IMG/VR virus record: IMGVR_UViG_3300034126_000020
Span: 160,001 to 224,000 of that record
Direction: 5' to 3' (one strand)
Source: a virus
Lineage: Duplodnaviria > Caudoviricetes
DNA: 64,000 bases
Positions within the stretch are counted from its first letter, which is position 1. Each line of letters begins with the position of its first letter. A model generated the notes under the pieces. It saw only the letters and a program-made list of their open reading frames with translations. It was not told where the DNA came from and did not search any database. This document shows, piece after piece, positions 2,520 through 19,787 of the stretch. The translations under genes and the position numbers were made by a program.

Positions 2520-3143
2520 TTACAGCGACCCGTTGTTAGGATCGCTTGGATCGTCCAAGCCGTCGTCGAGGAAAGCTTCGAAGTTAGCCCACATGCTGTC
2601 CTTAACCAAGGTTTGCTCGGCAAAGCGCAGCGGACCACGGTTGTCACCGTCACGGATCGTGAGGTACTGAGTACTTACAGCACCGCCTTCATCGTTAAAG
2701 GTGAACAGCCCGTCCATGACAGCCTGGTAATCTGGGTTATCCTCGCCATGCTTCCCTTGGAAGTAATTGACGAAGGAATCACGCCAGCCATTCATCATGT
2801 CCTTCTCGAACAGTTTCTGAGCGCGCGGGTTAGCCATGAGCCAACGCTGCTGATCAGGCCCAGCTTGTTGGAACTGACCGATCTTGAACATCGGCCGGAT
2901 CTCATCCCGATCAAACAGGTGACTGACTTTCCGTTTGAGTGCGTCCATCTTGCGTTCCAGACGATCAAAGTCAAACGACTCGAACCGCTGTACCGCTCGA
3001 CTGAACACTTCACTGCCCGCAAGCCCATAGGACCGAGCAGTGTTTTCCATACGCTGTCGGATAGCCGCACGGTCCTCCGATCGCGGAAGTCCGTAGTGCA
3101 TGACACCGAACTCCTGATCATCAGCGTAGATAGCTATCGCCAT
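2520..3143 (-). CDS. Conserved chimallivirus protein (207 aa), positional equivalent of phiKZ gp59
   Basis: ATG 3143 with GAGGAG SD, directly after nvRNAP beta-prime. The orthology is inferred from synteny only. Confidence 0.6.
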   Translation of the reverse strand: MAIAIYADDQEFGVMHYGLPRSEDRAAIRQRMENTARSYGLAGSEVFSRAVQRFESFDFDRLERKMDALKRKVSHLFDRDEIRPMFKIGQFQQAGPDQQRWLMANPRAQKLFEKDMMNGWRDSFVNYFQGKHGEDNPDYQAVMDGLFTFNDEGGAVSTQYLTIRDGDNRGPLRFAEQTLVKDSMWANFEAFLDDGLDDPSDPNNGSL

Positions 3144-4695: not shown

Positions 4696-6606
4696 TTAGA
4701 AGCTATTGCCGAAGCCAAAGCCGTTACCAACGTTGCCACGCAGCGAACGAGCGCCGTCACCAGTCACGCGGCGGCTCGAGAGCATGCCGTGAGTGAGGTC
4801 ACCGCCGACGAAGTCACGGATGCGAGTGTTACCACGCAGGCGACGGTTGCCGAAGGTGTAGTGAGCGGAACGCTGGTCGATGTTGATTTTGCAATCAGCA
4901 ACGGCCATTGCCAGCGCTTCGATGAACTGCGGGTTGACGAAAGCCAGGTCTACGTAACGAGCGAACTTCACGTTGCTCGCGCCGAGGGCGCTGGTCAGTT
5001 GGTCGTACTGCTCGCTGACGCGGATTTCTACGTCCAGGTCAACGCGGTCGATCACGTCCTGATAACGCAGGGCAGATTCGCCTTCGTCATTCGGGTTGGT
5101 GGCCATCCAGCGCAGCAGGTCCCATTCACGCAGATCGCGCTCGTTGCCCTTCTCGTCGATCCAGGTGCCAGTCAGGTAACGAGCACCGGACATTTGCAGC
5201 GGGGTTTCGACGCCCAGTTCACGGGCACGGCGGGTGAAGTTGCCGTTGGTCAGACGGTCGGCGTAGTCGTACAGACGGCCGATGGCGTCCTTGTTGGCGC
5301 TGTCGTCAGTAGCAGCGTCGGACAGCAGGGAGGTGATCCAGCTGTTGTCGCCGCCTTCTTCCAGCTCGATAGCCCAGGCCAGGTTGTCGTCAACCAGGCT
5401 GAAGAAGTACTGAGCCCACTTGTGGGTGTCCAGCGACGCACGGTTGTCGAACTCGACCGGAGTCTTGTCCTGATCCGGGCCGAGGATGTTCAGCAGGCCA
5501 GCATCACGGTGGTCGATTTCGCCGCGAGCGATGTCGCCCGGCAGGTAGGTCTGAGCCCACGCTTGGTCTTTCGAGATGACCGACGCACCAGCCAGAGCCA
5601 GCAACAGCAGCTCAGGGGTGATGCCGTTGGCGTTGGTGTCCATGCGGTTGATCACGTACATCGGAGTGAAGTACGGCTGATCACGGCGCTGGGTACGGCT
5701 CCAACGATCTTGTTCGACCGGCGGGGTGTACATGATGCTGACGTAACCGCCCAGGTTGGCCAGGCCAACAGGGATGTTCTGGTCGCCTTTGCGCACGATG
5801 CCGGCAACGGTAACGGCCAGGTCGGAACGACGTGGCAGACCGTCAGCGGTCATGGCTTCACGGCCAGACAGGTCGACGTTGATTTCCAGGGTCGATTGCT
5901 TGCTCAGCCAGTCCAGCGAGAAGAACAGGTCAGGCTGGAACAGGTTGCTGTAGATCGCTGCCAGAGCGGCCTGGGCGTAGAACACGACCTGACGCACTTC
6001 GGTGTTTTCCGGATCGTTGAAGTCCACTTTGTGGGACACTACGCGCCAGCCGGCACGAACGATCTCGACGCTACGGCGCGACTGATCGAAAGCCTTCTTC
6101 GCGATTTCGTCAACCAGAGCCAGGTAGCTCTCGGTGATGTAGTCGGAGGCGATGATCGGCAGCGGGTAGGTGCGATGGTTGATTTCGACGTTACGCACGG
6201 TGGCGTCGTCGGTCATGCTCGAGGACAGAGCCAGAGCCGACACCAGAACCTTGACGGTGCCGTTGTCTTCGACTGGGTAAGCCAGGATCACCGAGGAGAT
6301 GCTGACGTTGTGCTCGGAAGCTTCCAGACCCAGAACTTGGATCTTGGAGAGGTCGATCAGGCCGGCGCCTGCAACCTGACGCTCTGGATCGAACCAGTGC
6401 TTAACCGACTTAACAGCGTTGACCAGAACTTCGCCGCTGATGCGACGGGACATCGGTGCGCCGAGCAGGCGGTTGATGTCCAGCAGGCCAGCGGTGCCAG
6501 CCTGCGATTCACGGGCAGGGCGCTCAGCACGTTCGCTGCGAGGTTGTTCGGTGCGCGGACGCTCGTTGCTCGAAGCGGTGTTGTCGATGTCGTCTTGTAC
6601 AGCCAT
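4696..6606 (-). CDS. chmA: Chimallin, major phage-nucleus shell protein (636 aa)
   Basis: Size ~630 aa, disordered charged N-terminus, Gly/aromatic C-terminal segment (GNGFGFGNSF), strong SD. Position between the gp52-like gene/DNA polymerase and nvRNAP beta-prime is the canonical chimallivirus arrangement. Confidence 0.9.
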   Translation of the reverse strand: MAVQDDIDNTASSNERPRTEQPRSERAERPARESQAGTAGLLDINRLLGAPMSRRISGEVLVNAVKSVKHWFDPERQVAGAGLIDLSKIQVLGLEASEHNVSISSVILAYPVEDNGTVKVLVSALALSSSMTDDATVRNVEINHRTYPLPIIASDYITESYLALVDEIAKKAFDQSRRSVEIVRAGWRVVSHKVDFNDPENTEVRQVVFYAQAALAAIYSNLFQPDLFFSLDWLSKQSTLEINVDLSGREAMTADGLPRRSDLAVTVAGIVRKGDQNIPVGLANLGGYVSIMYTPPVEQDRWSRTQRRDQPYFTPMYVINRMDTNANGITPELLLLALAGASVISKDQAWAQTYLPGDIARGEIDHRDAGLLNILGPDQDKTPVEFDNRASLDTHKWAQYFFSLVDDNLAWAIELEEGGDNSWITSLLSDAATDDSANKDAIGRLYDYADRLTNGNFTRRARELGVETPLQMSGARYLTGTWIDEKGNERDLREWDLLRWMATNPNDEGESALRYQDVIDRVDLDVEIRVSEQYDQLTSALGASNVKFARYVDLAFVNPQFIEALAMAVADCKINIDQRSAHYTFGNRRLRGNTRIRDFVGGDLTHGMLSSRRVTGDGARSLRGNVGNGFGFGNSF

Positions 6607-8982: not shown

Positions 8983-11274
8983 TCAGTCGGCGAGCCAGTC
9001 TTCTCCGTCATCTTCTTCATACTCCTCATCGTCATCCTCGTCGATCTTGAGGATGATGCTGTTGGCGTCAGTCGGATCAGGTTGCAGGTTGACTTCGCCT
9101 TTTGGTGTATAGATGTCGCTGATCAAGCGGACGTACTTGCTGTCGACTTGGAAGATCCCCAGCGTCTCGAGGATCATGTAGAAGGACTCCAGGATCTCGT
9201 AGGTGAGACGACGGACGTCGATCTGTGCCATGACCTCATCTGGCATCCCGATGCCCGACAGGATCGACAGAGGCAGCATGAGCGTGCCCATCTTGTCCTT
9301 GCCAGCCCGTTCGCAATACTCGCGCAGGCGTGCACCCAGCTCCTTGTCCGTGTTGTCCACGTGAGTGAGCCATTCCTGCATGTCGGTCTTGTTATTGATC
9401 GCCAGCGGAACCTTAATCACGGAGAACGGTGGGCTTTCTACATGGCCGTACTTCGGTGCAAAGACGTGCTCCCAGAAGTGATAGTGACGATAGTTCGTCT
9501 TCTCACGGAATGGATCTTCCTTGTTCATGTTCGGGTACGATTCCTGAACCTGTGCAGACTTCAGGTAACGGTGTTCCCCGGACTTGATCGAGGTGTAGAT
9601 GTCTTGCTCCAAACGCCACACCAGCAGGTACAGCTCTTCCAGTGTGAACTGACGGTTCTCATCCGCACGGGTCATGACTTCCTTCATGAACGCCTTGGCC
9701 TGCTTGATGATCGCTACCGGCACGGTGGAGGAACGCAGGGCTACGCCTTTGATCTCCATCTCGTAGTCACGGTACACACGGCCTTCACGAGCACTCATGA
9801 ACGCGTAGTAGTGCTTCGCCCGACTGGTCAAGGTAAAGACCGGGAAGGCGTACTCGTTCTTCATGGTGAGGCGGTGTAGGTCTTCCTGAATCACGCCCAT
9901 GTTGGCAGACAGCTTCGCCAGCACGTGCACGATGCATTGGCAAGCCACGAAGGTCGTAGTGTACCAGATGCCGTCACCTTCACGGCTACGCACGTCGCTA
10001 CCGGTGTACCACGTTACCCATTCCTGCGTGGTGAAGATCGTGGAGTCTGTGTCAGACGCCAGTACCACACGACGGAGGATGCCCTTGATGTTCGCTACGG
10101 TTGGAGCCAGCAACACTGGGGTCAGGAACACACGGATGAACTGGAAGTAGTCCTGCAACGTGTTCTGGATGTTAGCCGAGGACTTGGCAACCAGTGCCAG
10201 CTCAGCCGTCATCCCTTTTTCTTTCATGGAGTCGAAGTCTTCACCCCGAGTGATGTCCGCGTTGAGGTACGTGGCCAGCATCTTGGTGTCGTCGTCGAAT
10301 GCCTTGCTGCGAAGCATGGCAAAACCGTCTTCCACTTCCATGGAATCGTTACGTGGCTCGTGTTTGATGATCCGGTCCATGAACCCACGGACAAAACCAT
10401 CGTTGAGCTGGGCAATGTGGTACAGGTCGCCCGTGTACATCACGATCGCACGCTCCAGCGGGGTCAACTTCTCGATCAGGTCAGCGATCTTCTGGAAGTT
10501 GGCCTCGTTGCGCCAGTACAAGTCAGTGCTGCGCTTGATGCACTTGACAGTTTGCTCGGTGGAAGGGTAGACAAAGCCGCAACTGTCCATCACTTGACGG
10601 AATTCCTCGTGCGGTTGGCTCTTGACCAGCGCGAGGATGTTGGCAATCGTTATCTTGGGTGACCAATAGTGTCTTGACCCTGCCAGTAGCTTCTCGTTAC
10701 TGGCGTTACCGTAGCCGGTGGCAGAACGGCACATCGAAGTCAGGCTGGAGTGGCCCGATTTCACGTAGAGAATGTTACCAGTGAAGCCGTGCATGCCAGA
10801 CAGCGAGTTAATCGCGATCTTCTTGGCGTTCTGCTCGGCGTCCTTGATCTTCTCAAGGGTCTCATCCCCTGCTACCTGAGCAAGGAACATCTCGTTCTTG
10901 GCTTTCTTACGTCCTGCGATGCCCGATTCAACGAACTTGGCCGAAGGGGACTTCAACACCTTCGGGTTCTCGTAGCACACCATCGATGGACTGATGATGC
11001 GGTTGGTGTCAGTCACGGTTTTGACGTAGTTGAGCAGGGTCATTTCAGTTTTGACCCGGTTGCCCGGTGATTCTTGTTTCAAGACCAGCATGTTCGGATC
11101 ACGAAGCGGGTACTTCCCACCTCGGGAGAGTGTACGCTTCAGGAACGCCAAGCACTTGTCTTCCGGCTGCCCGGTCATCCGATGCAGATAGTGGGTATTC
11201 TGTTCGAAGTACCCCTTCAACAGATCGAGGTCACGGGTATAGGCTTCCTTCGGAAGTACAAACGGATTTTCCAT
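8983..11274 (-). CDS. Family-B DNA polymerase, phiKZ gp50-like (763 aa)
   Basis: KKIAINSLSG (motif B KxxxNSxxG), LASDTDS (motif C) and EIKGV motif. Start moved to MENPF at 11274, after the upstream terminator. Confidence 0.92.
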   Translation of the reverse strand: MENPFVLPKEAYTRDLDLLKGYFEQNTHYLHRMTGQPEDKCLAFLKRTLSRGGKYPLRDPNMLVLKQESPGNRVKTEMTLLNYVKTVTDTNRIISPSMVCYENPKVLKSPSAKFVESGIAGRKKAKNEMFLAQVAGDETLEKIKDAEQNAKKIAINSLSGMHGFTGNILYVKSGHSSLTSMCRSATGYGNASNEKLLAGSRHYWSPKITIANILALVKSQPHEEFRQVMDSCGFVYPSTEQTVKCIKRSTDLYWRNEANFQKIADLIEKLTPLERAIVMYTGDLYHIAQLNDGFVRGFMDRIIKHEPRNDSMEVEDGFAMLRSKAFDDDTKMLATYLNADITRGEDFDSMKEKGMTAELALVAKSSANIQNTLQDYFQFIRVFLTPVLLAPTVANIKGILRRVVLASDTDSTIFTTQEWVTWYTGSDVRSREGDGIWYTTTFVACQCIVHVLAKLSANMGVIQEDLHRLTMKNEYAFPVFTLTSRAKHYYAFMSAREGRVYRDYEMEIKGVALRSSTVPVAIIKQAKAFMKEVMTRADENRQFTLEELYLLVWRLEQDIYTSIKSGEHRYLKSAQVQESYPNMNKEDPFREKTNYRHYHFWEHVFAPKYGHVESPPFSVIKVPLAINNKTDMQEWLTHVDNTDKELGARLREYCERAGKDKMGTLMLPLSILSGIGMPDEVMAQIDVRRLTYEILESFYMILETLGIFQVDSKYVRLISDIYTPKGEVNLQPDPTDANSIILKIDEDDDEEYEEDDGEDWLAD

Positions 11275-11290
11275 CAGTTGGGCCCTTGAT

Positions 11291-11345
11291 ACGGCAAAAG
11301 AAAAAGAAAGGGAGGATCGCTCATAATAGAGCAACCCTCCGTTTT
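11291..11345 (-). terminator. Hairpin + U-tract upstream of DNA polymerase
   Basis: Minus strand reads GGAGGG..GCTC TATTAT GAGC..CCTCCC TTTCTTTTTCTTTTGCCGT. Confidence 0.65.
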
Positions 11346-11833
11346 TATTCACTGAAGTTCACGAACGTGTAAACGACAGTGTCTTCTTCCCGCATTGGGA
11401 CTACCTCGGTAAGAACGAAGCCATCTTCCTGTGCCTGGATCAGGCGGAGCGTGTCAAACCCATGGGGTCGGATGCCGCAGTTGTGGAAGTTGACCACCTC
11501 ATCGAGGAAGTCTTGCGCTACAGCATCATCGAAGTTGCTGTAGATGTCGTCCATGTGGGCTTCGGTGTACGCGGTGTCACCATTCTCCTCATGGATCATG
11601 ATGTCAACGTGCAAGGCCGGGTGACACATGGCAATCATGTCATTGTGCACTTGCTCAGTGACGCGGTGTTTGTGCGTCACCTTCTCAACCGCTTCAAGAA
11701 AGTCGCCGTACGCCTTGAAAAACTCATCGTCAAACGGGAACAGGATGTGGTTCTCCGTCCCCGCTTCGAATTGCAAACGCTTTGGGCGACGGGGAGGCCA
11801 CTTAATACTCGATCTTGAAATCCTTGATGCCAT
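11345..11833 (-). CDS. Small protein, member of putative tandem paralogue array
   Basis: N-terminal strand HILFPFDDEF; C-terminal hairpin LRLIQAQEDGFVLTEV; start uncertain. Confidence 0.65.
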   Translation of the reverse strand: MASRISRSSIKWPPRRPKRLQFEAGTENHILFPFDDEFFKAYGDFLEAVEKVTHKHRVTEQVHNDMIAMCHPALHVDIMIHEENGDTAYTEAHMDDIYSNFDDAVAQDFLDEVVNFHNCGIRPHGFDTLRLIQAQEDGFVLTEVVPMREEDTVVYTFVNFSE

Positions 11834-12194
11834 TTTGGAGAAGTGCCTCGCGCACGAGTTGTTCGGTCGAATCACTGACACTGCCCACTGTAACAACCAG
11901 CTTGCGGTCGGTGATAACCTCAATGGTGTTTAGGTCGATCCACGGCACACCCAGGACTTCAACAGCCCCGTTGCCGTAGCGCAACTTCACGTAACTGTAC
12001 GAACCTGCCGACTGGGGCAGGGTGGTCAAATAGTTCTTGACCTGGCTGTGCTTGGACTTGACATCGGAAATCAACTGGGCCGTGTCGAGGTCCAAGTCCG
12101 CAGCCACAATGGTGACGTTATCGCGGTTGGCCCCGAGGATGTTCGGGACCAGCGTGTTGAAGCGAACCGTCTTACCTTTGTAATCGGTGATCAT
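11802..12194 (-). CDS. Conserved beta-rich protein (130 aa), phiKZ gp49-like by position
   Basis: GAGGA SD before ATG 12194; pattern differs from the neighbouring array members. Confidence 0.7.
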   Translation of the reverse strand: MITDYKGKTVRFNTLVPNILGANRDNVTIVAADLDLDTAQLISDVKSKHSQVKNYLTTLPQSAGSYSYVKLRYGNGAVEVLGVPWIDLNTIEVITDRKLVVTVGSVSDSTEQLVREALLQNGIKDFKIEY

Positions 12195-12492
12195 GCGGAT
12201 GTTCCTCAATGATTAAAACGAATGTCCCTTCTGTGTCCACTACTTCCACGTCAACCCACTGCCTGTGTGAGAGTGCGCTGAAGGAGCGGTCTTGGCGGAT
12301 TCGTGCCAACCATTCACCATGATGCCGCAGGTCTTCCCTGAGGGCTATGAAGAACGCGTGGAGGATCAAATCCCTCACGTAACGGCGAACCGCACTGGGC
12401 AGTTCCTCGTCATGTGGCAAATCTGGGTCGAGGGAGTAGCAGACCTCGGGCAGGAGGTCAGCCAGAACCTCTGATGTGTTGATGACAATCAT
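12172..12492 (-). CDS. Small protein, putative paralogue array member (106 aa)
   Basis: MIVINTSEVL ... VDVEVVDTEGTFVLII. Confidence 0.65.
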   Translation of the reverse strand: MIVINTSEVLADLLPEVCYSLDPDLPHDEELPSAVRRYVRDLILHAFFIALREDLRHHGEWLARIRQDRSFSALSHRQWVDVEVVDTEGTFVLIIEEHPHDHRLQR

Positions 12493-12501
12493 GGGTGGTC
12501 C

Positions 12502-12858
12502 TTAGCGCACAACGACGATCAAGGCCTCTTCTTCGGGGTAGTACGCGGCATGTACAACGCTGCGTCTATCCAGTCCAGGAGTTGCACGGTCTATCGCACA
12601 GTAGAGGTTGATCATAGCATTTCTCAGCGCTATGAAGTTGTCTTGGGCATCTTCCTGCTCTTCTCGTGTGGAGCCGGGGTAGACGGGGTACATCGGTTTG
12701 CAGTAGTTATCTACCGCGACCTCACCCCTCCGGCACCAGTCAGCATAGAACGAATACATTTCGTCCATCACATACGAGTGGTCCATGACTTGGGACAAGT
12801 CGGTTAAAAAGGCTTCGTGTATCTCGCCTCCATTGAAGATCATGCTACGCTCAGCCAT
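12502..12858 (-). CDS. Small protein, putative paralogue array member (118 aa)
   Basis: SMIFNGGEIH ... VHAAYYPEEEALIVVVR. Confidence 0.7.
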   Translation of the reverse strand: MAERSMIFNGGEIHEAFLTDLSQVMDHSYVMDEMYSFYADWCRRGEVAVDNYCKPMYPVYPGSTREEQEDAQDNFIALRNAMINLYCAIDRATPGLDRRSVVHAAYYPEEEALIVVVR

Positions 12859-13201
12859 TGGATATTCTCACAACGAGTGAGCCGTCTGACGCGTCGTAAG
12901 CTACCAGTTCAGTGAACAGATGCTCAAGTCTACGGAAGCGGCTCAGTTGGTCTGCAAAGTCAGAGAATACGGGAATGACCAGCTCGTAAGCTTCATCGAC
13001 TTCCAGCATTAGCTGGTCACGAAGGGCATTCCGATTCGCAGACTCTCTCATCCAATAACTGAGTACTTGGCCATATTCAATCGCGATCGTGTTCTTGATG
13101 ACGCCCCGTAATACTGAGGACACCGTGGCGGCCAGCAGTTTTCGATTGATACTTAGGAGCCAGTTTCCTTCGACGGGGATACACAATACTAGCGGGATCA
13201 A
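12851..13201 (-). CDS. Small protein, putative paralogue array member (116 aa, TTG start)
   Basis: AGGAG SD 9 nt before TTG 13201; VLCIPVEG ... LVAYDASDGSLVVRI. Confidence 0.65.
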   Translation of the reverse strand: MIPLVLCIPVEGNWLLSINRKLLAATVSSVLRGVIKNTIAIEYGQVLSYWMRESANRNALRDQLMLEVDEAYELVIPVFSDFADQLSRFRRLEHLFTELVAYDASDGSLVVRISNG

Positions 13202-13541
13202 CGGTGGGGTCTCCTGTTGTTCGCGGGGTAATCTCGACAATGGCAGAATCATCATCAAACACCTCCACCAGTTGGAAGTCACCTAACTGATCGACGAAGT
13301 GACTGGTCGAGTGGGACAGATCTTCGACGACGTCATGGATGATGCTGGCCAGCTCTGACTGGATCGACTCGGGAAGCCGGTCATTCATCATGGGCTCGTT
13401 CATCATGTCAGAATGACGATGGAGCCTTCCAGCGGCGGCGGATAGGTACGCGAATAGTTGGTCGAGTGACAGGCCTGTGGCCTCCAGTACCCGAGCCACA
13501 TTCTGTAAGAACTCGCCACTGGTTTCCAAGGTGATAATCAC
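13077..13541 (-). CDS. Small protein, putative paralogue array member (GTG start)
   Basis: IITLETSGEF ... LVEVFDDDSAIVEI; start inferred from the shared pattern. Confidence 0.55.
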   Translation of the reverse strand: MIITLETSGEFLQNVARVLEATGLSLDQLFAYLSAAAGRLHRHSDMMNEPMMNDRLPESIQSELASIIHDVVEDLSHSTSHFVDQLGDFQLVEVFDDDSAIVEITPRTTGDPTVDPASIVYPRRRKLAPKYQSKTAGRHGVLSITGRHQEHDRD

Positions 13542-13923
13542 TTTGGTCTCGGGAGGCTTGGATGTAGAGATCTTCGTCGGGCTCCCAGTAGACAACCTTG
13601 AGGAGGCTGAATGGCTTCCGAGTGCGCCAATTCTGACCTGATCCAGAAGATTTATCGGTAGTCTCATAAAAAGTCCTGAGGTTATCAAAGAGGGTGTAGA
13701 AGGTGGAGTAGATGTCGTCGCACCACCAGTTCAGTTCCTCTTCCATATCCGGATTGTTGTCGTTGATGTCCTCCAGATAGAAGGCGTCATCGAAGACAAA
13801 ATACGCGATGGCGGCATAGAGTAAAGCTGAGGCACCAATGTGATCGGCTAACTTCTTGCCGAGCATATCGAATGCCTCATCATACGGTAGATTCAAAGCG
13901 ATTGAGCTTATTCCAGTCGACAA
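13408..13923 (-). CDS. Small acidic protein, putative paralogue array member (TTG start)
   Basis: GAGGTG SD before TTG 13923; SIALNLPYDEAF ... KVVYWEPDEDLYIQ. Confidence 0.65.
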   Translation of the reverse strand: MSTGISSIALNLPYDEAFDMLGKKLADHIGASALLYAAIAYFVFDDAFYLEDINDNNPDMEEELNWWCDDIYSTFYTLFDNLRTFYETTDKSSGSGQNWRTRKPFSLLKVVYWEPDEDLYIQASRDQSDYHLGNQWRVLTECGSGTGGHRPVTRPTIRVPIRRRWKAPSSF

Positions 13924-14368
13924 CTCGTCTCACCTCTATTACCATTACGCCATCACAGTATTCAAGAACCCGGCAATCGGAACAAGCATTCCTGAGCAGG
14001 CCCTTGAAGCAGGCTTGCATGATACTGTTGACAGCGTGGATATTCATGCGCTCAGCAGCAAGTACTGATTCACGCACGCGGTTTATCCATGAACGGCCGG
14101 CTCGGGTGTCAAGCACATCTCGGGCAATGATGGCACAGTTGATCATCTCGACCATAGGAATCATGATGCCAATCTTGCCCAATCGCCTGTAATGGCGTTT
14201 GAACTCATCATGATCCATAGGCGATTCAATCAGGACGTACTGGGTGTGGTCGGGCGCCTGCCCTACCGTCACCCGACTCACTGTGTATGGCTCATAGGCC
14301 CGAGGATATAAGCTCTTCGAGCGCTCGACGTAACCGTTCAGGATAGAAATCTCCCTGCGCTTGAGCAT
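13880..14368 (-). CDS. Small protein, putative paralogue array member (162 aa)
   Basis: AAGGA SD; YVLIESPMDHDEF ... RVLEYCDGVMVIEV. Confidence 0.65.
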   Translation of the reverse strand: MLKRREISILNGYVERSKSLYPRAYEPYTVSRVTVGQAPDHTQYVLIESPMDHDEFKRHYRRLGKIGIMIPMVEMINCAIIARDVLDTRAGRSWINRVRESVLAAERMNIHAVNSIMQACFKGLLRNACSDCRVLEYCDGVMVIEVRRVVDWNKLNRFESTV

Positions 14369-14735
14369 GGTTGAAGTCTTCCTTTAATCGGTGGCTAGGC
14401 TTTGGCACCGGGCGAGGACGTTGCTCCACGAACAAGGATTCGTTCAGTGGATGGTACTCCAGTTCAAGGGAGTACTTTTTAAGATCAGTCCCGGTTTCAA
14501 CCAACCGGCGGAATTGATCTACAATGTCATCGACAGGGGAGTAGTCTGAAAGGTTGCCCTTAACCGACTCGATCACATCATCAACCAACGTGGCTGATTC
14601 AGTCCGGTTGTATGAATGAACCATCGCTATCACAGCTTTGGTCACGGTAGAGGAAAAGCATGAGCCATGCTGCTCAAGGAACATCTCCCTGAGCATCGTC
14701 TCAACTTCCCCAGTGGAGACTAGGAATGTTGTCAT
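14292..14735 (-). CDS. Small protein, putative paralogue array member (147 aa)
   Basis: TTFLVSTGEV ... LELEYHPLNESLFVE. Confidence 0.7.
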   Translation of the reverse strand: MTTFLVSTGEVETMLREMFLEQHGSCFSSTVTKAVIAMVHSYNRTESATLVDDVIESVKGNLSDYSPVDDIVDQFRRLVETGTDLKKYSLELEYHPLNESLFVEQRPRPVPKPSHRLKEDFNHAQAQGDFYPERLRRALEELISSGL

Positions 14736-14746
14736 CTGAGCACCTG

Positions 14747-15355
14747 TTACTGACGGCTGAGCTGCTCCATGTACATGCGCTTGACTTCGTCACGGATGAC
14801 CGGGTTGTGAATGTCCTTGAATGTTTCACGAATGCAGTAGTCAATGTACTCACTGTATTCTTCAAGGTCGTCCACTTCACGCACCATCTTCGGCGGAGTG
14901 AGGCGCTTGACTTGGCGGAGCAAGTCCTTATACCGTTGTAGCAGTGGGTCACTTTTTACCTCGATGATGAGGTCTTCAGTGAACTTCACGTGCCGGAACT
15001 CTACCTGACGAGTCCCGATGTTCTTCAAGATCGTGTTGATCATCGGATCGATGGTCATCATGATGGCCATGAAGTGCTCATCGCACTCCGCGCACAGATC
15101 GTCCACTTCATCGTGGGACATTGCACGCGTTGGATACCCCAATGCCTTGATCAGTATTTCGAGCGGGTCTGGCTTTCTCCGAAGGTGTCGCATGGACATC
15201 TGGATATAAGCTTGCGCGAAAGCCGCAGCGGCTTCCACCAGAACCTCATTTCTACGCGGACCACTGCTCTCGACTGTATGACCTCGTGGCCACAAGTCCA
15301 GTGTATCGTCGAGGTAAGACACTACCTCTGAAATGGGAACTGAGATGTTCTGCAC
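14747..15355 (-). CDS. Protein, putative paralogue array member (202 aa, GTG start)
   Basis: GGAG SD; NISVPISEVV ... FRHVKFTEDLIIEV, plus a helical C-terminal extension. Confidence 0.7.
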   Translation of the reverse strand: MQNISVPISEVVSYLDDTLDLWPRGHTVESSGPRRNEVLVEAAAAFAQAYIQMSMRHLRRKPDPLEILIKALGYPTRAMSHDEVDDLCAECDEHFMAIMMTIDPMINTILKNIGTRQVEFRHVKFTEDLIIEVKSDPLLQRYKDLLRQVKRLTPPKMVREVDDLEEYSEYIDYCIRETFKDIHNPVIRDEVKRMYMEQLSRQ

Positions 15356-15359
15356 GGTT

Positions 15360-15704
15360 TCACTCCAAACTAAGTCTTTTTCTTTTGACCATGACCAGGA
15401 TCTCGTTGGTCATTTCGATCGCTACGACGTAACGTTGCAAGTGCGCGATTACGTTTCTATCCAGCTGATCGACGAATGTCATCCCACACCGGTCCTGAAG
15501 AGCATGGATCTGTCGGTACTGGCTGTCCAACGATTTGCACCGTGGGGTAGATGAGACTAAAGTCATTCCGGTTTTCTCAACCAGCTCTCGTTCGATCACA
15601 TACTGCCATGCAAGCAACGATAGTTCTCCACCCTCGTCAATGGTACCAATGAGGAACGAAACGTCGAACACGAGCGCTGTAGGGCCCTTAAATTCGATGT
15701 TCAT
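15360..15704 (-). CDS. Small protein, putative paralogue array member (114 aa)
   Basis: GAGGGG SD; ALVFDVSFLI ... YVVAIEMTNEILVMV. Confidence 0.7.
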   Translation of the reverse strand: MNIEFKGPTALVFDVSFLIGTIDEGGELSLLAWQYVIERELVEKTGMTLVSSTPRCKSLDSQYRQIHALQDRCGMTFVDQLDRNVIAHLQRYVVAIEMTNEILVMVKRKRLSLE

Positions 15705-15746: not shown

Positions 15747-15790
15747 CTAAAAAATAACCCACTGAGAGCAGGGAAGTCCCTGCTCTCATT
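15747..15790 (-). terminator. Rho-independent terminator
   Basis: Minus strand reads TGAGAGCAGGGA CT TCCCTGCTCTCA then GTGGGTTATTTTTT. Confidence 0.7.
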
Positions 15791-15798
15791 ATGGAGTG

Positions 15799-16008
15799 TC
15801 ACCCCAAGCTCGGCCAACCATCATTACCGATCGGGTCGGACTTGTTCAGCGCAGGACCGTGCTTCTCGAAGCTGTAGCGCTCTTCAGGGAACTGATGGTG
15901 CCACTCGCCATTCTTGCAGCGGCCACATTCGTAGCCAGGACCCGTTTGCTGAGTCGCATGGATGTTGTCGACTTGGCCACAGGTCTCACATTCAAACACG
16001 TCGGTCAT
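15799..16008 (-). CDS. Small putative zinc-ribbon protein (69 aa)
   Basis: CETC ... CGRC pairs; AAGGAAGG SD. Confidence 0.65.
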   Translation of the reverse strand: MTDVFECETCGQVDNIHATQQTGPGYECGRCKNGEWHHQFPEERYSFEKHGPALNKSDPIGNDGWPSLG

Positions 16009-18750: not shown

Positions 18751-19740
18751 TTACCAAACCAGGCCGGAGGCCGTTGGCTTGTCCTTGTCGCCAGTGAACG
18801 CGACTGCTTCAGTAGCAGCTTGTTCTTGGTCGGCGATTTCACGCTCGAGGTCTTCGACGCGCTTACGCAGTTCACCCATGGAGCCGTTTTCGATACCGAA
18901 GAACAGGCTGCCTTTGGCTTGTGCGATGGAAGGCATTACGCCGTAAGTGCTGTAAGGCACGAACATTTCCGGAGTCGGATCGGTGGCTTCACGCAGCAGG
19001 TAAGCAGAGGCCAGAGCGCCGCTACGCATCAGCTTGGTGAAGTCTTCGATGTTGTCCGACACGTGCATGCGGCACAGTTGGGCACGAGCCTTGGTCGACT
19101 TGGTGAAGTTGAACAGCGACTTCAAGTCTGCGGTGTCCAGGCCGTGGTTACGGCGAGAGACCAGAGCAGCCAAAGCGGTGATCATCAGGTGCGCTTCGTT
19201 GTCGACAGCTTTGTCAGTCATCTGGCCGGCTTTGTTGAAGCCCAGGTGAATGATGCCCGGCATGCCGCAGGAGCGCGAGATGTTGTCCAGGGTCTTCACG
19301 CCACCGATGGTGTTCTCGGCGTTGCGGATGGCCTGTTGTGCCCAGACCACGATACCCATGGCCATGTGACCATCGTCCAGCAGCTTCTTCAGGATCAGGG
19401 GACCCGATACCGAACCAGTACCGCCAGCCAACGTGAAGACCACAACGGTCATGTCAGCAGGTGGGAACTTGCGCAAGATGTCAGGAACAGCTTTGGCAAT
19501 CGCTTCAGCGTTTTCAGGACGCAGGCCGCCTGAGCCGTCCAGACCATCGAACAGCCAGGTCTTGTCAACCAGACGGTCATCGAGGTTGGAGTCAGAGGTG
19601 TCCACGAAGCAAACTTCGATGTTCGCGACGTCGGCGCTGTGACCAGCTTCCAGGTATTCCTTAGCGATGTTGACACCGCCGCCACCACAGCCGATGATGC
19701 GCATGGTGCCTACAGGACGATTAGAGAGACCGTGACTCAT
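18751..19740 (-). CDS. phuZ: PhuZ phage tubulin (329 aa)
   Basis: IIGCGGGGVN (T1), FVDTS, GLDGSGG, LAGGTGS tubulin signature, acidic tail ending GLVW; GAGGTA SD. Confidence 0.95.
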   Translation of the reverse strand: MSHGLSNRPVGTMRIIGCGGGGVNIAKEYLEAGHSADVANIEVCFVDTSDSNLDDRLVDKTWLFDGLDGSGGLRPENAEAIAKAVPDILRKFPPADMTVVVFTLAGGTGSVSGPLILKKLLDDGHMAMGIVVWAQQAIRNAENTIGGVKTLDNISRSCGMPGIIHLGFNKAGQMTDKAVDNEAHLMITALAALVSRRNHGLDTADLKSLFNFTKSTKARAQLCRMHVSDNIEDFTKLMRSGALASAYLLREATDPTPEMFVPYSTYGVMPSIAQAKGSLFFGIENGSMGELRKRVEDLEREIADQEQAATEAVAFTGDKDKPTASGLVW

Positions 19741-19787
19741 TGTGACTACCTCATTGAGGGTTGTTGATTTGGGTGTTGCACACAATG

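Follow-up and report, generated by a model that had tools for sequence, protein, structure and literature searches.

What is encoded by the ten small genes that separate phuZ from a DNA polymerase gene in a phage related to phiKZ? The genes in question are ten co-oriented open reading frames (ORFs) on the minus strand, designated g01 to g10 here and located within positions 11345-15704 of a 64,000-nucleotide stretch of DNA (positions 160,001 to 224,000 of IMG/VR virus record IMGVR_UViG_3300034126_000020, Caudoviricetes). This whole stretch is referred to as the window, and all positions are given in its coordinates unless another locus is named. The record that holds the window is 276,810 bp in length, with terminal repeats, and its closest cultured relative is Pseudomonas phage pPa_SNUABM_DT01 (DT01). 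A tblastn search of the genome with phiKZ proteins revealed homologues of core import and nucleus genes, namely ChmA (E-value 8e-13), Imp3 (2.5e-10), Imp6 (ChmC; 8e-16), Imp1/PicA (5.7e-35), and gp70 (6.9e-29); the phage is therefore a nucleus-forming chimallivirus. Along the minus strand, PhuZ (18751-19785) is followed by several small genes, a Zn-ribbon gene (15799-16008), the ten ORFs, and a DNA polymerase subunit (8983-11352) that corresponds to phiKZ gp50. The ten ORFs are real genes, because orthologues of each are found in unchanged order in approximately 15–20 IMG/VR contigs and in DT01.

A strand-helices-hairpin layout among the array proteins

The initial annotation of this locus proposed that the ten proteins repeat one architecture. 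We applied AlphaFold2 to two in-frame fusions, in which natural neighbors are read through their stop codons, that together cover g02, g03, g08, g09, and g10. Model 1 joins g03 and g02 from the window, with a mean predicted local distance difference test score (pLDDT) of 83.1 and a predicted template modeling score (pTM) of 0.55. Model 2 joins g10, g09, and g08 from a relative designated L018 (mean pLDDT 77.5, pTM 0.37). All five modeled proteins are predicted to begin with a strand (β1), to continue through four or five helices, and to close with a C-terminal hairpin (β2-β3), after which g09 carries three extra helices and g08 two. In g03, β1 (residues 3–9) precedes helices at residues 11–21, 31–36, 38–44, 46–56, and 65–92 and hairpin strands at 101–107 and 112–118. 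The corresponding elements of g02, in fusion numbering, are a strand at 123–128, helices at 130–143, 155–169, 181–188, and 191–195, and a hairpin at 200–206 and 212–218. In Model 2, the strand and the two arms of the hairpin fall at 10–14, 92–98, and 102–110 in g10 (the L018 orthologue), with helices in between; at 119–123, 232–238, and 244–252 in g09, with five helices in between; and at 326–329, 410–417, and 422–429 in g08, with four. The predicted strands coincide exactly with the strings that the initial annotation had listed, whose shared architecture is thus borne out in five of five modeled proteins; its extension to all ten goes beyond what the models cover.

Four of the model domains superpose on BFVD monomer models of their DT01 orthologues, which are independent of the fusions, with target-normalized template modeling (TM) scores of 0.98 (g03; root-mean-square deviation 0.8), 0.97 (g02), 0.91 (g10), and 0.82. 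In these four, the fold is therefore not a product of the fusions. The g08 domain agrees poorly with the BFVD model of its DT01 orthologue (target-normalized TM score 0.34). The pTM values of 0.55 and 0.37 mean that no confident packing between modules can be read from the fused models. Two other approaches were abandoned. A Chou-Fasman-type prediction of secondary structure on the alignments reached a three-state accuracy (Q3) of 58% against the AlphaFold2 models, too poor for use, and a deep g03 alignment within the fusion was dropped because MAFFT shifted distant hairpins into the g02 half.

How specific is this layout? Foldseek searches of BFVD with the models returned the DT01 orthologues first and then, almost exclusively, small chimallivirus proteins (100–190 amino acids), including proteins of Psa21, PhiPA3, Noxifer, RP12, RSL2, Ea35-70, LAh10, and Miami. 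Dozens of matches have probabilities of 0.75–1.0, many of them 0.9–1.0. Five Psa21 array genes, recognized by their exact lengths of 129, 305, 165, 115, and 126 amino acids, are among them. The same models found no match above probability 0.21 in the PDB and no convincing counterpart in the PDB or AlphaFold DB. A sequence search of the PDB with phiKZ gp43, gp47, and gp48 found nothing, and none of the ten proteins had a significant match to a family in Pfam or PHROGs. The DT01 orthologue of g05 (181 amino acids), which belongs to the half of the array outside the fusions, is a weak Foldseek match of Model 1 (probability 0.54). An ESM Atlas feature lookup for g05 gave inconsistent matches and was set aside.

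For g01 and g04 to g07, we turned to profile comparisons of the ten families. The distance from the first strand to the center of the hairpin is 80–100 residues in nine of the ten. In 14 of 45 family pairs, the best hhalign alignment departs from the hairpin register by no more than 8 residues, compared with a null rate of 0.089; the corresponding p of ~2e-5 is only indicative, since the pairs are non-independent and the anchors were picked by eye. Alignments in register include those of g07 with g05 and g10 and those of g04 with g08, g09, and g05. The five modeled families also supplied a hairpin profile, which was compared, profile to profile, with 36 targets on which it had not been trained. 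Its best match lies on the predicted hairpin in g07 (rank 1; residues 139–147), g06 (rank 3; residues 112–124), g05 (rank 4; residues 96–104), and g04 (rank 8), while the predicted hairpin of g01 was missed. When wider clusters were used, three cross-family hhalign links exceeded the maximum of 11% probability seen in 850 control pairs, none of them individually significant: c29 (the g08 family cluster) with c35 at 28%, g04 with c29 at 23%, and g01 with g05 at 15% over 172 columns. The g01 family is linked only through g05 and g04, in hhalign and the register test. On this evidence, g04 to g07 are probable members of the module family, and g01 is a possible one.

Age of the block and its counterpart in phiKZ

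No DNA-level repeat is visible across the array, as the initial annotation had reported. When ORFs from 99 loci were clustered for comparison across clades, slot-for-slot orthologues emerged: g10 with c54, g09 with c35 and c46, g08 with c29, g06 with c48, and g03 with c34 and c40. The hhalign probabilities of these correspondences are 98% for g08 and c29, 86% for g06 and c48, and 41% for g10 and c54, and the g03 family extends further to clusters c99 and c102. Such orthology argues that the block is ancient. The array is not a lineage-specific tandem expansion but an old block, which keeps its slots across chimallivirus clades and differs in slot number among them, from about 6 to 11.

Within the slots, the sequences diverge quickly. 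In contigs whose polymerase is 73–79% identical to that of the window, array genes have a median identity of 35–56%, compared with 78% for the polymerase; the median values in the same contigs are 56% for PhuZ and 65% for the gp49-like gene. Between clades, the families are not traceable by BLAST.

Other clades provide a view of duplication. In one distant clade (L071 5741-7053), a tandem of three genes leads directly up to the gp49-like gene; the three are recognizable as paralogues of one another within the g03 family, and each has an N-terminal strand and T-x-E motif and an aromatic-rich C-terminal hairpin. The g03-family hidden Markov model (HMM) matches all three over the full length of the model (1e-19 to 1e-21), though the iterated HMM had included them; by BLAST, two of them are 24% identical over 138 amino acids (E-value 1e-3). 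Pairs of cluster c67 genes in L086 and L093 are 30–32% identical. Neighboring slots are thus demonstrably paralogues in other clades, as judged from their sequences.

The order of the corresponding slots in phiKZ is gp43, gp44, gp44.1, gp45, gp46, gp47 (Imp2), gp48 (Imp4), gp49, and gp50 (10.1101/2024.03.27.586873). Both blocks occupy the same place after PhuZ and directly upstream of a gp49-like gene and a gp50-like polymerase subunit on the same strand, both are made up of genes of the same size class and orientation, and Imp1, Imp3, and ChmC, which are core genes of import, are present in both genomes. The blocks differ in content. phiKZ has six genes (gp43 to gp48) and the small gp44.1, whereas the window phage has ten separate genes, one of which, g01, is additional and separates the gp49-like gene from the polymerase. 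Moreover, g09 and g08 are unfused in the window phage, whereas gp43 is a single polypeptide.

Proteins of the family comprising gp43, PhiPA3 gp039, and Psa21 gp039 are 305–365 amino acids in length and of unknown function, and their halves match the g09 and g08 families. With HMMs built without sequences of the phiKZ clade, the g09 family matched the N-terminal half of gp43 (4.6e-6) and its 201phi2-1 relative gp75 (1.4e-7), and g08 combined with c29 matched the C-terminal half in two members of the gp43 family (~1e-4). Comparison of gp43 with cluster c35 by hhalign gave a probability of 95%; the link of the C-terminal half is weak (15%). Foldseek aligned the gp43 family with the g10-g09-g08 model over ~380 columns, with E-values from 6e-8 (PhiPA3 gp039) to 4e-3. 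The matches of the two halves indicate that gp43 is a natural fusion of two modules.

The initial annotation noted that one of the phiKZ genes at this locus has been implicated in nuclear import, and this was right: orf47 (Imp2) and orf48 (Imp4) occupy the same slot, and their homologues are Foldseek matches of our models. Psa21 gp044 (126 amino acids) is an Imp4 homologue (HMM 7e-38; its identity rests on length and HMM) and the fifth-best BFVD match of the g03-g02 model (probability 0.99, E-value 1e-2, target-normalized TM score 0.46, both structures being predictions). PhiPA3 gp044, named as an Imp2 homologue (10.1101/2024.03.27.586873), matches the g10-g09-g08 model with a probability of 0.80, an E-value of 0.1, and a target-normalized TM score of 0.38, again between two predicted structures. 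The correspondence of g03 to gp47 and of g02 to gp48 is positional only.

Gene boundaries and the embedded gene

The features of the array are collected in Table 1. Terminator-like hairpins bracket the block on both sides, and it therefore looks like one transcription unit. The downstream hairpin falls inside the polymerase ORF as listed, which starts at GTG 11352. Because of this, and because polymerase homologues align only from residues 13–27 of the long ORF, the true start of the polymerase is probably ATG 11274.

Table 1. Features of the ten-gene array in window coordinates, from upstream to downstream on the minus strand
Feature	Position	Strand	Remarks
Terminator-like hairpin and T-run (putative)	15758..15772	-	after upstream Zn-ribbon gene; upstream array boundary; consensus match only
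g10, 114 aa, ATG start, strand-helices-hairpin module	15360..15704	-	orthologues in 15 loci
g09, 202 aa, conserved GTG start, module and three C-terminal helices	14747..15355	-	
g08, 147 aa, module and two conserved C-terminal helices (GDFYPERLRRA motif)	14292..14735	-	
g07, 162 aa if ATG 14368 (alternative GTG 14272 or 14281)	13880..14368	-	orthologues in 13 loci; predicted module begins near residue 45
g06, 171 aa, TTG start	13408..13923	-	start column L/V/M in most aligned relatives; tail non-conserved
g05, ~154 aa from GTG 13541 (start uncertain)	13077..13541	-	
g04, ~116 aa from TTG 13201 (AGGAG upstream; start uncertain)	12851..13201	-	
g03, 118 aa, module	12502..12858	-	positional counterpart of phiKZ gp47 (Imp2)
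g02, 106 aa, minimal module	12172..12492	-	positional counterpart of phiKZ gp48 (Imp4)
Embedded gene, SH3-fold, PF20287, phiKZ gp49 homologue	11802..12194	-	Pfam E 3.9e-22, 78.6 bits vs cut-off 25
g01, ~143 aa from TTG 11776 (alternative ATG 11833)	11345..11776	-	orthologues in 17 loci; weakest candidate member
Intrinsic-terminator-like hairpin, strong (12 bp stem, T-run)	11311..11340	-	between g01 stop and likely polymerase start; downstream boundary

About half of the array genes appear to begin with TTG or GTG (11776, 13201, 13541, 13923, and 15355), which may reflect tuned or coupled translation. These non-ATG starts, of g01, g04, g05, g06, and g09, are uncertain; in the g06 and g09 alignments, most relatives have a start-compatible residue (L, V, or M) in the start column. 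Three pairs of genes overlap out of frame: g08 and g07 by 77 nucleotides (14292-14368), g06 and g05 by 133 (13408-13541), and g05 and g04 by 124 (13077-13201). The tail of g08 is conserved, whereas those of g06 and g05 differ in length among relatives, so that the latter two overlaps may merely reflect missing stop codons. In the GenBank annotation of DT01 (L001 3653-6565), the orthologues of g04 and g06 are left out, and those of g01 and g07 start at internal Met codons with loss of the conserved N-terminal strand.

One gene of the region does not belong to the strand-helices-hairpin family. The initial annotation set it apart as unrelated and β-rich; this was correct, and the gene can now be named. 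Its clear PF20287 membership is shared with phiKZ gp49, whose solved chain in the PDB (9xqs_M, 'PHIKZ049') it matches with an E-value of 9e-7. In the phiKZ baseplate, the hexagonal ring HR1 is formed by gp49 (PMC13250141). By homology, then, the embedded gene is a gp49-type virion baseplate ring protein. The Pfam name of the family, 'SH3 fold domain associated with phage DNA polymerases', reflects gene neighborhood only, because gp49 is a component of the virion baseplate. A virion baseplate gene thus sits inside an operon of non-virion genes; the phiKZ virion atlas makes no mention of gp43, gp47, or gp48 (PMC13250141).

The Zn-ribbon-like protein at the upstream edge of the array contains 69 amino acids and two CxxC pairs. 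Its cluster comprises 43 ORFs in 38 of the loci compared, from several chimallivirus clades, and also absorbed adjacent u2 ORFs. Downstream of the polymerase lie the homologues of ChmA (4774-6312, minus strand) and Imp3 (2544-3077, minus strand), and those of Imp6/ChmC, Imp1/PicA, and gp70 lie 1.6–6.4 kb ahead of the window start. The gene order is that of phiKZ, gp50-gp54-gp59-gp67-gp69-gp70.

A possible role in import into the phage nucleus

What might such a block do? In phiKZ, the RecA-like Nlp1 depends for its import on Imp2 (orf47), which is itself imported, and host TopA depends for its import on Imp4 (orf48) (10.1101/2024.03.27.586873). Both have been called cargo-specific adaptors (10.1101/2024.03.27.586873; 10.64898/2026.09.21.753271), and the genetic and microscopy evidence for cargo-specific import comes from phiKZ and PhiPA3 only (10.1101/2024.03.27.586873). 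Because of position, fold, and phiKZ genetics, we read the ten genes as a conserved operon, probably derived from an ancient duplicated module and the counterpart of phiKZ gp43-gp48, whose members would be cargo-specific import adaptors. We regard the balance for and against this reading as even; what we infer in it is the fold of the five proteins outside the models, a shared origin for the whole set of ten, and a role of any kind in import.

According to this adaptor model, the module would consist of an N-terminal strand, a body of four or five helices, and a C-terminal β-hairpin, ~95–115 residues in all, with optional helical extensions. Each member would act as an adaptor, specific for its cargo, in import through Imp1/PicA into the phage nucleus. 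The import machinery would recognize the scaffold that all members share, and the fast-evolving helical surfaces would bind differing cargo, for example proteins of replication and recombination or host proteins that have been recruited. Because they are fused as one protein in the phiKZ clade, g09 and g08 probably act as a pair. In eukaryotes, cargo adaptors of the importin-alpha type feed one transport receptor. The analogy is one of function only, in that several adaptors with differing cargo would converge on one licensing factor, here proposed to be Imp1; we know of no structural or sequence relation between the array proteins and eukaryotic import adaptors. It is tempting to extend the model to a chimallivirus-wide repertoire of 6–11 paralogous adaptors built on one unsolved fold, in which Imp2 and Imp4 are two members, each slot licenses different phage or host proteins for Imp1-dependent entry, and g09/g08 (gp43) form an obligate pair. 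This extension is tentative, and taken as a whole it is doubtful.

Several results weigh against the adaptor model or the family on which it is built. The all-against-all hhalign comparison of the ten families, which the initial annotation had suggested as a check, reached a maximum probability of 7%, with no pair individually significant, and iterative HMM searches over the 99 loci never merged the ten families. HMMs of the N- and C-terminal parts of the module, built from the five modeled families, did not retrieve the other five from the phage proteome, and the N-terminal motif gives no signal in HMM or profile-profile searches. Foldseek cross-matches have modest TM scores (0.3–0.7) and E-values of 0.01–0.2, and what the models directly show to be shared is the order of secondary structure elements, not equivalence in three dimensions; for the latter, the evidence is indirect and consists of BFVD and PDB hit lists that the models have in common. 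No window family or merged profile has significant sequence similarity to Imp2 or Imp4, the best hhalign values of 1–4% being at background. Finally, transposon data indicate that not all slots are essential in phiKZ, since gp44, gp45, and gp46 carry many insertions (PMC12676376 supplement). The lack of individually significant matches, the elusive N-terminal motif, and the confinement of the models to five members speak for a reading without any family, in which unrelated small proteins have in common a widespread, convergent layout picked out by eye and by weak tests. We consider this the least likely of the alternatives. All five modeled proteins are alike in layout and module length; the Foldseek matches concentrate on array genes of other chimalliviruses and are absent from the PDB; neighboring slots are sequence paralogues in other clades; hairpin registers are enriched above the null; and in four of the five unmodeled families, the best match of the hairpin profile coincides with the predicted site.

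Two further explanations give the block another purpose. The ten proteins may be subunits of one hetero-oligomeric machine, such as a replication or nucleus-associated accessory complex, in which edge strands join between subunits and the fixed gene order reflects ordered co-assembly. One-to-one slot orthology in an invariant order across clades, a single operon with overlapping or coupled genes, a gp43 in which modules of the g09 and g08 kind are naturally joined, and the adjoining polymerase subunit would all suit such a machine. It is nevertheless unlikely, because the phenotypes of Imp2 and Imp4 in phiKZ are different and cargo-specific rather than common (10.1101/2024.03.27.586873), slot number varies by clade, and the fused models offer no confident packing between modules. 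In phiKZ, moreover, gp43, gp47, gp48, gp49, and gp50 have zero transposon insertions (PMC12676376 supplement; column meanings inferred from layout), whereas gp44 to gp46 tolerate them, and this split weighs against a single complex. The absence of insertions in gp43, Imp2, and Imp4 (PMC12676376) also speaks against fast-evolving host-takeover or anti-defense effectors, each with its own host target, that are kept in an early operon and use the layout as a convenient small scaffold. The high divergence of the array relative to the polymerase, families that BLAST cannot trace between clades, and the action of Imp4 on a host protein, TopA (10.1101/2024.03.27.586873), would be in keeping with such effectors. 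Strict synteny and single-copy slot orthology throughout the family are unusual for accessory effectors, however, and Pfam and PHROGs returned nothing significant and nothing related to defense (PADLOC was not scanned), so that we rate this explanation as somewhat less likely than a hetero-oligomer.

In previous studies, the conservation of Imp2 and Imp4 was described as confined to phiKZ-like phages of Pseudomonas (10.1101/2024.03.27.586873; 10.64898/2026.09.21.753271). A shared fold or an array-wide family is not mentioned in the published accounts of Imp2 and Imp4 that we found, although our coverage of the literature is incomplete and an earlier description is possible. Two corrections to annotation follow from the present analysis: the embedded gene encodes a baseplate ring protein rather than a polymerase accessory, and several gene starts in the cultured relative DT01 require revision. 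The analysis bears on the way in which proteins are chosen for entry into the phage nucleus, a question in which Imp2 and Imp4 have so far been treated as isolated factors. If they instead belong to one structural family that occupies a conserved operon throughout the chimalliviruses, the remaining slots, including the apparently essential gp43, would all become candidate cargo adaptors, and solving a single structure would account for the entire set.

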